Assembly: GCA_963731735.1 (NCBI GenBank)
Contig: CAVSWO010000002.1
Span: forward strand, 692,257 to 756,256
Source: Candidatus Kerfeldbacteria bacterium
Lineage (GTDB): Bacteria; Patescibacteriota; Patescibacteriia; SBBC01; CAIJZX01
DNA: 64,000 nt
Reading direction: 5' to 3'
In this document: in pieces, positions 4,315-22,667 of the stretch
How the letters are laid out: the number at the start of each line of letters is the position of its first letter
Numbering within the stretch: the stretch's first letter is position 1
Notes under the pieces: generated by a model
Seen by the model: the letters and a program-made list of their open reading frames with translations, nothing else
What the model was told of the DNA's origin: nothing
Databases searched by the model: none
Position numbers and translations under genes: made by a program

Positions 4315-5211
4315 ATGTCGTTCCTTGATATTATCGCCATCGTCGTGCTGGTTCTCAGCCTGATTGGCATCGGTTTCATCGTCTTCCGTAAGTTTCCCCT
4401 CTTGGCTTCGATTGACGTCAAAGCCACCACCAGTCCGACGTCCGAACGAAAAGTCACGATTCTTGAACAGCGGCTGAAGCGAAAATTCCAAACCGCCTTC
4501 ACGAAAGTCGGTAGCGTCAGCCAACCGGTTTGGCAACGGACCGGCGGCCTGATGAAAAAAGCCCAGCATAAATTAGTTGACCTTGAACATGAATACAAGG
4601 CCCGGTCGTTACCGGTCTGGCTGAACCGTCGGCAGCGACAAAAAGTCGCCAACGAAGTCGGCGAACTGCTCGATCAAGCCCGGTTGCTGATTGAAGACGA
4701 GGAATACCGGGCGGCCGAAGAGAAAGCTCTGCAAGCAGTCCGGCTTGATCCGCGTTCGGTACCGGCTTTCGAACTGCTGGGAGAAATTTACATGGAGACG
4801 AAAGAATTTACCCACGCCAAAGAAGTTTATTCATACCTCTTGAAGCTCTCGGGTGATTCCGACGCGATGTATGAAAAAATGGCTGAAGCAGATATGGCCG
4901 ACGGAAACCTGGCGGCCGCCGAAATTGACCTTAAGCAAGCCATCGCTCTCAATAGCTCAAGCATGCTCTATCACTTAGAACTGGCCCAAATTGAACGCCA
5001 GCTTGGCCACTGGGAAGACGCCTTCAGCGCCATTCAAGCCGCGGCCCAGCTTGAACCAAACCACCCCAAGGTGTTAGATGAACTGATTGAAGTTTCCCTC
5101 GGTGCCGGCAAACGAGAGTATGCGAAGGATGCCATCGCCAAAATTAAATCTACGAACCCTGACAATAAAAAAATCCCCGAGTGGGAAGAGCGACTGGCAA
5201 CGCTCAGCTAA
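4315..5211 (+). CDS. tetratricopeptide-repeat protein with N-terminal transmembrane helix
   Basis: Hydrophobic N-terminus LDIIAIVVLVLSLIGIGFIVF. Repeated 34-aa helical Ala/Leu/Glu-rich units in the C-terminal half. Confidence 0.5.
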   Translation: MSFLDIIAIVVLVLSLIGIGFIVFRKFPLLASIDVKATTSPTSERKVTILEQRLKRKFQTAFTKVGSVSQPVWQRTGGLMKKAQHKLVDLEHEYKARSLPVWLNRRQRQKVANEVGELLDQARLLIEDEEYRAAEEKALQAVRLDPRSVPAFELLGEIYMETKEFTHAKEVYSYLLKLSGDSDAMYEKMAEADMADGNLAAAEIDLKQAIALNSSSMLYHLELAQIERQLGHWEDAFSAIQAAAQLEPNHPKVLDELIEVSLGAGKREYAKDAIAKIKSTNPDNKKIPEWEERLATLS

Positions 5212-5217
5212 CATCAC

Positions 5218-5290
5218 GCCCACGTAGCTCAGTTGGCAGAGCGCGTCCATGGTAAGGACGAGGTCCGCGGTTCGATCCCGCGCGTGGGCT
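5218..5290 (+). tRNA. tRNA-Thr (anticodon GGT); CCA encoded at 5291-5293
   Basis: Cloverleaf folded by hand. Acceptor gcccacg/cgtgggc, anticodon loop atGGTaa, T-loop ttcgatc. Confidence 0.85.
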
Positions 5291-5293
5291 CCA

Positions 5294-5332
5294 GGGTCGG
5301 TACCGAAGCGGTCAAACGGGCCTGACTGTAAA
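5294..5332 (+). repeat. exact 39-nt copy of the 5' half of tRNA-Tyr (acceptor through anticodon loop), not followed by a 3' half
   Basis: Identical to 5382-5420. Followed by the 49-nt arm X (5333-5381), whose sequence is approximately the reverse complement of arm Y (5469-5508). Confidence 0.8.
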
Positions 5333-5381
5333 CCCGCCTGCCAAAGCCGTACTTCGACATTTGATAATACTCGACATACTT

Positions 5382-5465
5382 GGGTCGGTACCGAAGCGGT
5401 CAAACGGGCCTGACTGTAAATCAGGCGGCCTCGCGCCTTCGTAGGTTCGAATCCTACCCGGCCCA
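5382..5465 (+). tRNA. tRNA-Tyr (anticodon GTA) with long variable arm; CCA encoded at 5466-5468
   Basis: Acceptor gggtcgg/ccggccc with one G-U pair, anticodon loop ctGTAaa, variable arm cggcctcgcgccttc, T-loop ttcgaat. Confidence 0.85.
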
Positions 5466-5508
5466 CCAAGTATTATCATAATTCGAGTAGCTTTGTTCGG
5501 CGGGCAGG

Positions 5509-5556
5509 TCAGGCGGCCTCGCGCCTTCGTAGGTTCGAATCCTACCCGGCCCACCA
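5509..5556 (+). repeat. exact 48-nt copy of the 3' half of tRNA-Tyr (anticodon stem 3' strand through CCA)
   Basis: Identical to 5421-5468. Preceded by the 40-nt arm Y. Confidence 0.8.
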
Positions 5557-5691
5557 CGGGTCAAACCATGCTGCGGCTTCCGTGTGCTCAAGGACTGAGC
5601 CCACTGCAGCCTCCGCATGACTGCCCCTTACCCCACAAATCCGTGCTCGCTTCGCTGCGCTCCTGATTTGCGGGGGCCCCAGGTAAGCTAC

Positions 5692-5763
5692 GCCAGCGTA
5701 GCTCAGTGGCAGAGCAACTGTTTTGTAAACAGTAGGTCATCGGTTCGAATCCGATCGCTGGCT
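5692..5763 (+). tRNA. tRNA-Thr (anticodon TGT); CCA encoded at 5764-5766
   Basis: Acceptor gccagcg/cgctggc, anticodon loop ttTGTaa, T-loop ttcgaat. Confidence 0.85.
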
Positions 5764-5790
5764 CCAGAAAGATTCATTTACCACACATAT

Positions 5791-5946
5791 ATGTCACAAG
5801 ATAACCTGATCAAGTTGCAATGCACCGAGTGTAAGCACATCAACTATCACTCGAAGCGGAACAAGAAGACGATCAAGACTAAGATCGAGCTGACCAAGTT
5901 CTGTAAGCACTGCAAGAAGCATCAACTTCATAAAGAGGTTAAATAG
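5791..5946 (+). CDS. rpmG: 50S ribosomal protein L33 (51 aa)
   Basis: [43 protein letters not shown] matches the L33 zinc-ribbon pattern. The track ORF 5617..5946 runs through tRNA-Thr; the real start is the internal ATG at 5791. Confidence 0.85.
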
Positions 5947-5965
5947 AATATCGGCCGGTCGTGAT

Positions 5966-6037
5966 GGGGGCGTAGTGAAATGGCTATCACAACGGTCTCC
6001 AAAACCGTTATTCAAGGTTCGAATCCTTGCGCCCCTG
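5966..6037 (+). tRNA. tRNA-Trp (anticodon CCA); CCA end encoded at 6038-6040
   Basis: Acceptor gggggcg/cgcccct with G1-U72, anticodon loop ctCCAaa, T-arm caagg-ttcgaat-ccttg. Classic position after rpmG. Confidence 0.8.
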
Positions 6038-6091
6038 CCACGACCGGCCAGCTGAGAAGTGCCCGGCGGAGCCGGGTCCGGCTTCGCCGGA

Positions 6092-6254
6092 AAATGGCTA
6101 TCACAACGGTCTCCAAAACCGTTATTCTAGGTTCCCCCGGACTGCGATCCGGGGCTAGTGCCCGTGCCACGGGCGGCCGGGTCTCCATCACGTTTGTAGT
6201 CGAGTGAGTGGTTTCAAGCTATTATTCAAGGTTCGAATCCTTGCGCCCCTGCCA
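6092..6254 (+). pseudogene. disrupted second copy of tRNA-Trp: D-loop to variable region (6092-6134) and T-arm plus acceptor 3' end plus CCA (6222-6254), separated by an 87-nt hairpin-rich insert; the 5' acceptor strand is missing
   Basis: Both pieces match the intact copy at 5976-6040 almost exactly. The junctions share ttattc. Confidence 0.7.
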
Positions 6255-6312
6255 AATAAAATCGTCCTAATTCCCATTAGGCCCGGCTTGACATGTTCGC
6301 TATACTACGAGT

Positions 6313-8418
6313 ATGGACGAACACCCACTGTTGTACACATGCCCGATGCACCCGAAGGTAGTGCAGACGCATCCCGGCCTGTGCCCGGAATGCGGGATGC
6401 AACTTGTGCCATCGCATGATAACGGCGCGCACCAACATCACCATGACCACGCGGCCATGGACAAGCACGCTGGCCATTCCACCAATATTTTTAGAACGAA
6501 ATTCTGGGTGAGTTTTGCGCTGTCCCTGCCGATCGTGGCTTGGTCAGCCATTGCCCAAAAGACCCTTAGTTACTCGATTGCGTTTCCCGGACAAACGCTG
6601 CTCACAGTAGTCTTTGCCTCCGTGATTTTCTGGTACGGCGGCTGGATCTTTATCGCTTCAGCCGGTCGCGAACTGAAAGCCAAACTACCGGGCATGATGA
6701 CCCTGATCGGGCTGGCGATTTCCGTGGCCTACGGTTACAGCCTAGCGGTCTCGGTATTCGGCGGGGGAGAAGCGTTGTGGTGGGAACTGTCGACATTAAT
6801 TACCGTGATGTTGCTCGGACACTGGATGGAAATGCGAGCGGTGACCGGCGCCCAGGGTGCGCTCAACGAATTATCAAAACTCCTACCGGATACGGCTGAA
6901 GTTATCCGGGGTGACACGACCCACGTTGTTCCCTTATCCGAACTGAAGGTTGGAGATAGGGTGCTCGTCAAACCCGGCGGGCGGATCCCGGCCGACGGTA
7001 AAGTGCCAGCCGGCAATTCGGACGTCAATGAATCCGTGGTGACCGGAGAATCAAATCCGATAGCGAAGCGGGCAGGGGATCATGTGATTGCCGGGACTAT
7101 CAACGGGGACGGTTCGCTGACCATCATGATTACCCAGCTCGGCGACCAGACCTTCTTGGCCGGGGTCATGCGGCTGGTGGCCGAAGCCCAAGCCTCGAAG
7201 TCGCGGCTGCAAACCTTGTCCGATCGGGCAGCCTTGTGGCTGACAATCATCGCGATTGCCGGTGGGGGCATCACGCTGGTGACCTGGTTGTTCTATGCCG
7301 ACGCGTCATTTGCCATCAACCGAATGGTGGCGGTGCTGGTGATTACTTGCCCGCACGCGCTCGGGCTGGCGATTCCGCTGGTGGCGTCAATCTCAACCTC
7401 AAAGGCCGCTCGTAATGGTTTCCTGGTCAAACAACGCCTGGCGCTCGAAGCGGCTCGCACCATTACCGTCGTTCTGTTCGATAAAACCGGCACCCTGACC
7501 AAAGGCGAATTCGGCGTGGATACGATTGTGTCGAACGGTGAACCAGAAGCAACAGTCTTGCAGTATGCGGCGTCGGTCAACGCCAAGTCCGAACATCCGC
7601 TGGCTCAGGCCATGGTGACTGCCGCCAAACAGCGGCAGATCGAACTCCTCCCGATCAGTGAGTTTCAACGGTTGCCCGGCAAAGGCGTCCGCGCCAAGGT
7701 GAACAACACGGTGATTCAGGTTGGCAGTTTGACCCTGGCTAAAGAAGTTGGGGACGCCCTACCGGAAGCCATGCAAACCTCCGCCGATAAGCTGGCCGGC
7801 CAAGGGAAGACGATCAACGTGGTGATTCGCGAGGGTCATGTCCTCGGGGCGCTGGCCCTGGTCGACAGTATTCGTGACGAATCACGACAGGCGATTACTG
7901 CTTTGAAACAATTAGGAATCCAAACCGCAATGATCACCGGTGATTCGGAAGCGGTCGCGAAATGGGTAGCTGGAGAACTTGGAATCGATCGGTATTTCGC
8001 CCATGTCCTGCCCGACCAAAAGAGCGCCAAGGTCAAAGAACTCCAGGCCGAAGGGAATAATGTGGCCATGGTCGGGGACGGTGTGAATGATGCCCCAGCA
8101 TTAACCCAGGCAGATGTAGGGATTGCCATCGGAGCCGGAACAAACGTGGCGATTGAATCAGCCAGCATCGTGCTGGTCAAAAATGATCCGCGCGATATCA
8201 CGAAGATTATCCGGCTGTCGAAACTGACCTATACGAAAATGATCCAGAACTTATGGTGGGCGACCGGATACAATATCGTGGCCATTCCGCTGGCCGCCGG
8301 CGTTCTGGCCTTTAAAGGCATTATTCTCCAGCCAGCAGTTGGCGCTTTTCTGATGTCGCTTTCGACAGTGATCGTGGCCGTCAACGCGGTAGCGTTGCGG
8401 AGGCAGAAGTTGGATTAA
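6313..8418 (+). CDS. heavy-metal (copper) translocating P1B-type ATPase, CopB-like
   Basis: N-terminal CPMHPKVVQTHPGLCPECGM and a His-rich stretch. Membrane CPH motif (ITCPHALGLAIP), phosphorylation motif DKTGTLT, hinge GDGVNDAPAL. Confidence 0.9.
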   Translation: MDEHPLLYTCPMHPKVVQTHPGLCPECGMQLVPSHDNGAHQHHHDHAAMDKHAGHSTNIFRTKFWVSFALSLPIVAWSAIAQKTLSYSIAFPGQTLLTVVFASVIFWYGGWIFIASAGRELKAKLPGMMTLIGLAISVAYGYSLAVSVFGGGEALWWELSTLITVMLLGHWMEMRAVTGAQGALNELSKLLPDTAEVIRGDTTHVVPLSELKVGDRVLVKPGGRIPADGKVPAGNSDVNESVVTGESNPIAKRAGDHVIAGTINGDGSLTIMITQLGDQTFLAGVMRLVAEAQASKSRLQTLSDRAALWLTIIAIAGGGITLVTWLFYADASFAINRMVAVLVITCPHALGLAIPLVASISTSKAARNGFLVKQRLALEAARTITVVLFDKTGTLTKGEFGVDTIVSNGEPEATVLQYAASVNAKSEHPLAQAMVTAAKQRQIELLPISEFQRLPGKGVRAKVNNTVIQVGSLTLAKEVGDALPEAMQTSADKLAGQGKTINVVIREGHVLGALALVDSIRDESRQAITALKQLGIQTAMITGDSEAVAKWVAGELGIDRYFAHVLPDQKSAKVKELQAEGNNVAMVGDGVNDAPALTQADVGIAIGAGTNVAIESASIVLVKNDPRDITKIIRLSKLTYTKMIQNLWWATGYNIVAIPLAAGVLAFKGIILQPAVGAFLMSLSTVIVAVNAVALRRQKLD

Positions 8419-22418: not shown

Positions 22419-22667
22419 CGGGGTGTGGCACAGTTTCCCGACGGAAGTCGGGATAAAGTCCGCGCTCAACCTGTCCCGCAAAACTCGATTTTTTTCTGCC
22501 ACCGTGGGCGGGGTGTGGCGCAGTTGGTAGCGCGCATCGTTCGGGACGATGAGGCCGTGGGTTCAAGTCCCGCCACCCCGACCACGGTGGCAAAAGAAAA
22601 CATAGACGTGTTTGATGCGGGATTCGGGACGATGAGGCCGTGGGTTCAAGTCATATTAACCCGACCA
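22419..22667 (+). repeat. partial tRNA-Pro copies flanking the intact gene: 15-nt 5' fragment (22419-22433, 1 mismatch) and a 3' fragment from anticodon loop to T-loop (22623-22652) plus shared cccgacca (22660-22667)
   Basis: Read directly. The 3' fragment diverges only in the T-stem 3' strand (atattaa versus ccgccac). Confidence 0.65.
22509..22581 (+). tRNA. tRNA-Pro (anticodon CGG); CCA encoded at 22582-22584
   Basis: Acceptor cggggtg/caccccg, anticodon loop ttCGGga, T-arm gtggg-ttcaagt-cccgc. The leader gccaccg pairs with the trailer cggtggc. Confidence 0.8.

Follow-up and report, generated by a model that had tools for sequence, protein, structure and literature searches.

A stretch of 64,000 nt from the genome of a Candidatus Kerfeldbacteria bacterium (contig CAVSWO010000002.1 of 822,872 bp, positions 692,257 to 756,256 of the forward strand), which is called the window in this study, contains a complete tRNA-Tyr(GUA) gene nested between the two halves of another tRNA-Tyr gene. 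We consider, with a probability of about 0.6, that a 176-bp foldback cassette, acting at the DNA level, split the resident tRNA-Tyr(GUA) gene between nucleotides 38 and 39 and supplied its replacement. Nests of this kind were also found in related genomes, and they apparently represent an undescribed, recurrent "Russian-doll" mode of tRNA gene replacement in this lineage.

The tRNA-Tyr nest and its empty site

All parts of the nest lie on the plus strand. The outer 5' half of the resident tRNA-Tyr(GUA) (5294..5332; 39 nt, nucleotides 1-38, ending in CUGUAAA) is 100% identical to positions 5382-5420 of the inner gene. It is followed by the paired part of the left cassette arm X (5333..5371), which has the GC-clamp terminus CCCGCCTGCC and an A/T-rich inner part, and by a 10-nt leader, CGACATACTT (5372..5381). 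The complete inner tRNA-Tyr(GUA), with a long variable arm and an encoded CCA, comes next (5382..5468; detected by ARAGORN and by Rfam with 59.2 bits). The right cassette arm Y (5469..5508; 40 nt) begins flush after the CCA and ends with the terminus GGCGGGCAGG, and the outer 3' half (5509..5556; 48 nt, nucleotide 39 to CCA) is 100% identical to 5421-5468. This five-segment layout had been described in the original prediction, which was made from the letters of the window, and it held at every coordinate. Since the repeats of 39 nt and 48 nt are exact, a chance origin of the outer halves is impossible. The insert as a whole (5333-5508) is 176 bp, of which 87 are tRNA and the rest are the two arms. 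The prediction had regarded the whole 49-nt segment X (5333-5381) as an arm; its first 39 nt do pair with Y, whereas the last 10 nt form a leader that is unpaired in the minimum free energy (MFE) structure.

ARAGORN and Rfam both called just the inner tRNA-Tyr(GUA) at the nest, so the tRNA-finder run that had been suggested as a check gave the inner gene as the sole tRNA-Tyr. The Rfam alignment has CCUGA/UCAGG as the anticodon stem and CUGUAAA as the loop, which places the break exactly between nucleotides 38 and 39, as had been predicted. The junctions read CTGTAAA/CCCGCC on the left and GGCAGG/TCAGG on the right, and the flanks, when joined, give an exact intact tRNA. No target-site duplication was found at these junctions, nor were target bases lost.

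The arms X and Y are imperfect reverse complements, in agreement with the prediction. Their duplex energy, calculated by RNAduplex, is -36.1 kcal/mol (z = -5.6 against shuffled Y). The helix was thought to be of approximately 40 bp, but it comprises about 29 bp with several bulges. The 10-nt termini CCCGCCTGCC and GGCGGGCAGG pair flush with each other, with one C.A mismatch and one U.G pair, so that the insert is bounded by terminal inverted repeats. The proposed folding of 5294-5556 bore out the X:Y helix: the 263 nt fold as a nest in which the acceptor and anticodon stems of the outer tRNA, the X:Y helix and the cloverleaf of the inner tRNA are all formed, and this nest is the MFE structure (-110.1 kcal/mol, z = -4.4). 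The helix encloses the inner tRNA with its NCCA end opposite the short leader, as in leader-trailer processing stems of the rRNA-operon or IVS type.

No plausible protein-coding gene was found in or beside the insert; the listed open reading frames (ORFs) across it all run antisense through tRNA sequences. No homologue of the arms was found elsewhere in the window, which covers about 8% of the genome, nor among 44 fetched loci. A simple scan of the plus strand of X for a sigma-70 promoter detected none, GATAAT at 5363-5368 being a weak candidate. An Rfam E-value scan of 4800-6400 for RNA families other than tRNA gave tRNAs and two chance matches only.

Relatives show what the site looks like when it is empty. 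In L041 (related loci are denoted by L numbers), the closest relative with sequence at this place, whose tetratricopeptide-repeat (TPR) membrane protein is 70% identical to that of the window, tRNA-Thr(GGU) is followed by 4 nt and an uninterrupted tRNA-Tyr. Up to the end of the contig, 75 nt of this tRNA-Tyr are available, and 1 nt of them differs from the window gene. L006, L007, L008 and L009 have the same insert-free arrangement, and the spacers between tRNA-Thr(GGU) and tRNA-Tyr across the empty-site relatives are 1-23 nt. In addition, the flank 3' of the outer 3' half in the window (CGGGTCAA...) shares homology with the flank that follows tRNA-Tyr in L010. The comparison with orthologous loci that had been proposed thus found insert-free tRNA-Tyr genes after tRNA-Thr(GGU). 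Since the gene is uninterrupted in relatives and the flank is shared with L010, the outer halves are the resident gene and 5333-5508 is an insertion between nucleotides 38 and 39. At the level of sequence comparison, this shows a precise 176-bp insertion into the resident tRNA-Tyr.

Nested tRNA genes in the window and in related genomes

The loci were searched for tRNA fragments and for inverted repeats around intact tRNAs. At least 12 nests were found, in which an intact tRNA lies in GC-clamped inverted arms within pieces of the cognate tRNA. They involve the isoacceptors Tyr, Pro, Thr-GGU and Thr-UGU in at least nine genomes, and some of them reach three layers. The nests obey common rules. 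Inner and outer tRNAs agree in isoacceptor and strand; the right arm begins 0-2 nt past the encoded CCA; pairing of the left arm ends 0-10 nt before nucleotide 1; and the termini are a GC clamp, TCCCGC.../...GCGGGA or (CCYG)2CC. Target-site duplications were absent across the nests compared, including the clean Thr(UGU) nests at 35/36. Young nests are clean (Tyr 38/39, Thr-UGU 35/36 and Thr-GGU 34/35) and old ones have deletions.

The terminal module of the window nest (CCCGCCTGCC in X and GGCGGGCAGG in Y) also bounds the Thr(GGU) cassettes of L042 and L002, where it is inverted relative to the tRNA. Taken as the reverse complement, the window X terminus equals the Y-type terminus GGCAGGCGGG in the Thr(GGU) cassette of L002, and the window Y terminus equals the X terminus CCTGCCCGCC in the Thr(GGU) cassettes of L042 and L002. 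The shared module ties the otherwise unique window arms to the cassette family. One interpretation offered in the original prediction was a mini-element that is bounded by terminal inverted repeats, carries its own tRNA-Tyr and sits inside a tRNA gene. The empty sites, the match of the L010 flank, the shared terminal module and the similar designs in many genomes all support it.

At the orthologous place in L005, an intact tRNA-Tyr lies between perfect 20-bp arms, TCCCGCACCACTTTCCTTCA and TGAAGGAAAGTGGTGCGGGA, within nucleotides 1-21 and 67-87 of another tRNA-Tyr allele. In L021, a tRNA-Tyr cassette with homologous arms lies inside an outer tRNA-Tyr that is interrupted four times, and this locus was assembled identically in three independent Joint Genome Institute (JGI) metagenomes (L021-L023). 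tRNA-Thr(UGU) is nested three layers deep in L021 (3392-3800; also in L022 and L023) and in L026 (3600-3975), and tRNA-Thr(GGU) in L002 (4940-5235). Each layer of these nests has its own pair of inverted arms, and decay grows from the inside outwards. Further nests were found in L042 (Thr(GGU)), L002 (Thr(UGU)), L034, L018 and L026. A doubled 5' half in L004 flanks a run of N and was set aside as uninformative.

Many outer copies are decayed. The outer tRNA-Tyr of L005 is without nucleotides 22-66. The outer tRNA-Pro of a second nest in the window has lost the 5' region of its D/anticodon part and a portion of the T arm. The outer Thr(GGU) of L002 carries U33C and its CCA is cut to CA, the outer Thr(UGU) of L005 carries G35A, and third-layer copies are full of extra hairpins. 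L006, whose TPR protein is 73% identical to that of L005, keeps an inner-type Thr(UGU) and an X-like leader, and its Y arm and outer 3' half are missing. This state fits a deletion between the two GGCTCCA ends, to judge from the remaining sequence. Since older outer copies are dead, and since neither ribozyme likeness nor a bulge-helix-bulge (BHB) junction was seen, we infer that the inner gene is the working tRNA-Tyr and that the outer halves no longer function and are a relic.

The inner allele usually differs from the outer one by several compensated substitutions, and the two can stem from different lineages. The GCCAGYG-type allele of Thr(UGU) is the single gene in the window, L008, L010 and L016, and it is the outer copy in L021 and L026. 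The inner Thr(UGU) alleles are diverse. Over 75 nt, that of L026 (3732-3806) shows 100% identity with the only Thr(UGU) gene in L007 (2994-3068), the TPR proteins of the two being just 60% identical; between that of L005 and the single gene in L006 the identity is 96%. The outer Thr(UGU) allele of L026 resembles single genes of other lineages. The match between L007 and L026 hints that tRNA alleles may be exchanged horizontally, and the distribution of alleles fits repeated replacement of resident genes by incoming cassettes with later loss of the relics.

The second nest in the window is that of tRNA-Pro(CGG). Its inner gene (22509-22584) lies inside the degenerate outer tRNA-Pro (22420-22667). 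The left arm TCCCGC...CACCG (22474-22504) is followed by a 4-nt leader, and the right arm CGGTG...GCGGGA (22585-22622) is flush with the CCA. The outer 5' part (22420-22435) is followed by a mini-hairpin in the D loop, TCCCGACGGAAGTCGGGA (22436-22453), and the outer 3' part (22623-22667) begins at nucleotide 32. A third case in the window is the tRNA-Trp region (5953-6255), where a 9-bp inverted repeat, GGCCGGTCG / CGACCGGCC, flanks tRNA-Trp (5966-6040). Two tandem mini-hairpins (6062-6076 and 6077-6091) come next, then a Trp fragment of nucleotides 13-55 (6092-6134), whose T loop contains a hairpin (6135-6154), and then a 3' Trp fragment (6222-6254).

The genes upstream of the tRNA-Tyr nest are prmC, prfA, rpmE, rpsB, tsf and the gene of the TPR membrane protein, whose homologues carry the names Candidatus Kerfeldbacteria or Patescibacteria. 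The immediate upstream neighbour is tRNA-Thr(GGU) (5218..5293, plus strand; ARAGORN and Rfam), with a 0-nt spacer to the outer 5' half. tRNA-Thr(UGU), rpmG (ribosomal protein L33, assigned by Pfam) and tRNA-Trp follow downstream. The order TPR, Thr(GGU), Tyr, Thr(UGU), (rpmG), Trp is kept in most related loci with tRNA calls in the genome and metagenome collections, and the two Thr genes are swapped in L019 and L021-L023. Contigs of related populations often end in the tRNA cluster, commonly 35-160 nt past the TPR gene (L001, L003, L017, L024, L038, L040-L045). This suggests that short-read assemblies of these genomes are routinely interrupted at nested or repeated tRNA pieces. A Logan contig with the TPR gene ends within tRNA-Thr(GGU). 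Exact-protein look-ups with L33 (two coordinate sets) and with the downstream ATPase gave no independent assembly of the window junctions.

Mechanism and rival explanations

The cassette consists of two imperfect arms with GC-clamp termini, a 10-nt leader and a complete tRNA-Tyr with encoded CCA, and it would have arrived as DNA. RNase P would free the inner tRNA from the transcript of the operon by cutting at the single-stranded leader, and its 3' end would be trimmed back to the encoded CCA; the outer halves could not be rejoined. Since the cassette brings the tRNA that it destroys, insertion in a single-copy essential gene would be tolerated, and only cognate, same-strand insertions would survive. 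Repeated insertion may then generate Russian-doll genes, and deletion between the repeated tRNA ends may later clear the relics.

Two candidate mechanisms of insertion rank highest. One is recombinational homing, in which the conserved tRNA halves of the nested allele would serve as homology arms, a nuclease specific to tRNA genes having possibly made a break beforehand; homing repeated after nuclease cuts of naive tRNA genes would yield Russian dolls. In relatives, a 91-aa GIY-YIG ORF (PF01541, E = 1e-12) is inserted at 34/35 of tRNA-Tyr (L005 5514-5786, L006 2089-2361 and L026 4257-4529). In these three loci the insertion brings a spare copy of nucleotides 35-87, which rebuilds an intact tRNA-Tyr upstream and leaves the former 3' part displaced on the downstream side. 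At its end the ORF reads ...LLTATAxGGVPPxAA, and its stop codon is the TAA of the anticodon loop. A related GIY-YIG ORF lies upstream of the intact tRNA-Tyr of L019 (923-1162), and ORF-less remnants (a 35-nt "insert") are present in L011, L019 and L026. No homologue of this 91-aa family was found in the 64-kb window.

The other candidate is a structure-specific, hairpin-dependent insertion, which would take place into single-stranded loops of tRNA genes. The cassette arms behave like hairpin sites that are conserved in structure and variable in sequence, with a conserved clamp. Cargo-free mini-hairpins of this type pile up in dead copies, such as TCCCGACGGAAGTCGGGA in the D loop of the window Pro and TCCCGACAAGTCGGGA in the D arm of the L019 Tyr. 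In the pooled loci, YCC...GGR hairpins occur at 2.2 per kb in tRNA clusters and at 0.43 per kb elsewhere, that is, about 5 times more densely. A genome-wide repeat, such as a repetitive extragenic palindromic (REP) element or an uptake sequence, was rejected, since X is unique in the window and CCCGCC/TCCCGC are not visibly over-represented by raw count, with no expectation attached to the counts. CCCG...CGGG hairpins are mildly above the shuffled expectation (26 vs 15). A degenerate pattern of the Thr(UGU) cassette arm, which was used to look for a viral origin, had no match in IMG/VR.

Several observations weigh against a cassette that leaves a dead relic. The Thr(UGU) nests of L005, L021 and L026 are homologous over their full length, with identities of 76-86% in the outer halves, 71-85% in the arms, 68-82% in the small hairpin and 80-85% in the inner gene. 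The outer halves are thus as conserved as the inner gene despite the deep divergence of these genomes (60-62% identity of the TPR protein and 64-67% of its gene DNA). In the alignment, the outer acceptor stems read as 7/7 paired, with compensations at 4:69 and 6:67. We interpret this conservation as the result of related cassettes that independently entered resident genes which had diverged before; it would also be accounted for by a functional outer gene. The window nest combines outer halves that match the inner gene at 100% with arms that are only about 75-80% complementary. This requires either very recent insertion of an already old cassette or gene conversion, and it is also expected from selection on a functional outer gene. 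Since the window arms have no homologue in the fetched loci or in the 64 kb, the mobility of the window cassette is proposed by analogy. An enzyme, a target-site duplication or an autonomous copy was not found for the cassettes, and no transposase was seen. In addition, the window nest is covered by one assembly only.

Part of the conservation of the Thr(UGU) nests may be explained by expression of the inner gene. A small hairpin at the left junction of these cassettes (L021 3519-3556, L026 3675-3707 and L005 5980-6013) has a conserved loop with TATAGT, and TTGTCC or TTATCC lies 16-17 nt upstream of TATAGT in L026 and L005 (21 nt in L021), across the outer anticodon loop and the end of the element. 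On these motifs, the region is a plausible promoter for the inner tRNA.

The functional outer gene has its fullest form in a tRNA within a tRNA intron. The X:Y helix would join the outer halves, RNase P and 3' processing would free the inner tRNA, and a hypothetical pathway of the Patescibacteria would remove the arms and ligate the exons, so that one locus gives two tRNA-Tyr. An intron-like insertion that rebuilds a second tRNA-Tyr had been offered in the original prediction. It would agree with the nest being the MFE structure with intact outer acceptor and anticodon stems, with the intact outer halves in the window, and with the helix lying flush with the exon ends, a geometry common to many nests. 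The X:Y-type helices of the Thr(UGU) nests stay paired through at least 4 double compensatory changes, and their outer cloverleaves are near-perfect across genomes whose TPR proteins are about 60% identical, which would reflect selection on the outer gene. However, an Rfam E-value scan of this locus, a gathering scan of 10 related loci and an E-value scan of L033 gave tRNAs only, apart from two chance matches; there is no ribozyme signal, and a group I intron was rejected. The 5' exon ends with A38, not U, although the insert does end in G. A BHB junction has a 3-4-3 geometry at the two splice sites, and the BHB-like junction that was looked for by folding is ruled out by the fold: nucleotides 39-40 of Y and 1-6 of the outer 3' half pair with nucleotides 27-34 of the outer 5' half, so the 3' junction is in a continuous helix, and the 5' junction comes after a bulge of 5-7 nt. 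A split-tRNA junction is ruled out likewise. No protein-based pathway of tRNA splicing is known from bacteria. Moreover, many outer copies are dead, with deletions of 10-45 nt, U33C, G35A, lost CCA and extra hairpins in the D and T loops, and the outer copy is wholly lost in L006. The spliced outer product would here equal the inner tRNA and add dosage only. An intron is therefore unsupported at this locus, and we regard it as unlikely.

It is also conceivable that the nest arose in place by aberrant repair or replication. For example, the tRNA 3' end, folded back on its own leader, may have primed synthesis, making Y an inverted X, and the fragment may have been captured in a break of the anticodon loop. 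This fits the identity of the inner and outer sequences in the window, the restriction of the arms to this locus, and the X-like leader without Y in L006. Y always starts from the CCA end and pairing of X stops a few nt before nucleotide 1, as a folded-back 3' extension would give. On the other hand, the leader and arms bear no relation to the sequence natively found upstream, namely tRNA-Thr(GGU), and the arms are imperfect with indels while the halves are identical. The 10-nt terminal module is common to cassettes in another tRNA of other genomes, and the inner alleles of other nests differ by many compensated substitutions and match single genes of distant lineages. Such a non-mobile origin seems improbable to us. 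tRNA genes are classical attachment sites, and integration leaves partial tRNA copies (PMC9897764), so the scar of integrase-mediated integration and excision of one or two islands with a tRNA-Tyr attachment site was also considered, as it had been originally. Simple 3' fragments downstream of an intact tRNA, which were found in L016, L036, L009 and L012, are of the kind expected from this process. The nest itself fits it poorly, because the 5' half lies upstream and the 3' half downstream with no overlap and no direct-repeat core, and because the 176-bp insert has inverted arms and no ORF; we judge such a scar very improbable. A mis-joined repeat would be compatible with the coverage of the nest by a single assembly and with the breaks of short-read contigs of the same and related populations in the tRNA cluster. 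An assembly artefact cannot, however, make two unique imperfect arms with indels symmetric around a tRNA. The nested architecture recurs in independent assemblies from different projects, namely the NCBI metagenome-assembled genomes L002, L005 and L042 and the three JGI metagenomes L021-L023, and twice more in the window. Hence, an artefact is extremely improbable.

Relation to known systems and significance

The literature searches gave no description of cognate-nested tRNA genes or of hairpin-bounded tRNA cassettes in bacteria, in agreement with the view taken at the outset that the arrangement is undescribed in bacteria. Each of the closest known systems shares some features with the cassettes and fails at least one defining feature. 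Integrative elements in tRNA genes, such as prophages, integrative and conjugative elements and genomic islands, bring along a copy of the tRNA segment that they displace (Reiter 1989 and Williams 2002, as cited in PMC9897764). Like the cassettes, they insert within a tRNA gene, often in the anticodon loop, and restore an intact gene so that the host is viable; partial tRNA copies are left, and successive events leave several fragments. However, these elements are kilobases long, encode an integrase, carry only the 3' part of the tRNA and are flanked by the direct repeats attL and attR. The cassette has 176 bp, no ORF, a whole tRNA with its leader, inverted arms, and non-overlapping halves at both sides.

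Small palindromic or foldback elements include miniature inverted-repeat transposable elements, Rickettsia palindromic elements, GC clusters of yeast mitochondria and double-hairpin elements of fungal mitochondrial DNA. They are likewise short and ORF-less, with inverted repeats foldable to a hairpin and GC-rich termini, and they can sit in genes including RNA genes. The dead tRNA copies described here contain cargo-free mini-hairpins with such termini (TCCCGAC-GGAA-GTCGGGA and similar). The cassettes differ from these elements in that they make no target-site duplication, their arms are conserved in structure and not in sequence, and their cargo is a complete gene cognate to the target. So far they have been found only in tRNA clusters, with no transposase partner known.

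Group I introns are present in the anticodon loops of Patescibacteria tRNAs, including Tyr, Thr(UGU) and Thr(GGU), and the interrupted genes are missed by annotation tools (PMC13011429). The phylum, the target and the failure of annotation tools are the same as in the case of the cassettes. In contrast, the window insert has no detected ribozyme core, 87 of its 176 nt are tRNA, its 5' exon ends with A, and the gene is rescued by a replacement gene and not by self-splicing. In the tRNA cluster studied here, conserved inserts of about 190 nt were observed at 36/37 of tRNA-Thr(GGU) in L044 (3936-4118) and L033 (2033-2227); their position and size match the introns of PMC13011429, and Rfam gave no match. 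The insert-bearing Thr(GGU) of L033 is itself nested between outer pieces of nucleotides 1-38 and 56-76.

Disrupted tRNA genes of archaea have BHB introns at many positions, and the split tRNAs of Nanoarchaeum are joined via complementary leader sequences (PMC4033280, PMC3218864, PMC4390854). In both settings a long helix beside the break in the anticodon loop could unite the halves, and the small hairpin inserts in D, anticodon and T loops resemble the mobile introns of Thermoproteales. The host here is, however, bacterial (tRNA-Tyr with a long variable arm, L33 and encoded CCA), there is no BHB, the insert contains a complete tRNA, and outer copies decay. We know of no splicing endonuclease in bacteria. 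Free-standing GIY-YIG homing endonuclease genes, for example segB of phage T4, are located in tRNA clusters. The 91-aa ORF of the relatives is similarly another self-rescuing insertion, at 34/35 of the same tRNA-Tyr gene, whereas the window cassette has no ORF.

We rate the cassette in kind as a self-rescuing insertion in a tRNA gene, and the pattern as recurrent, clean and experimentally testable. Nests whose inner and outer alleles differ allow a direct test of protein-dependent tRNA intron splicing in bacteria. The nested arrangement would explain the assembly breaks at the tRNA clusters of these genomes. Standard tRNA finders give the innermost gene only, and the surrounding traces of earlier events escape them. 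In the tiny genomes of Patescibacteria most tRNA genes are single-copy, and even so the tRNA clusters host selfish insertions: self-splicing introns, a GIY-YIG gene with a spare 3' half, and hairpin cassettes with a whole spare tRNA. If confirmed, the cassettes would be a new minimal way into an essential gene without killing the host, and a route for the exchange of tRNA alleles among distant lineages.

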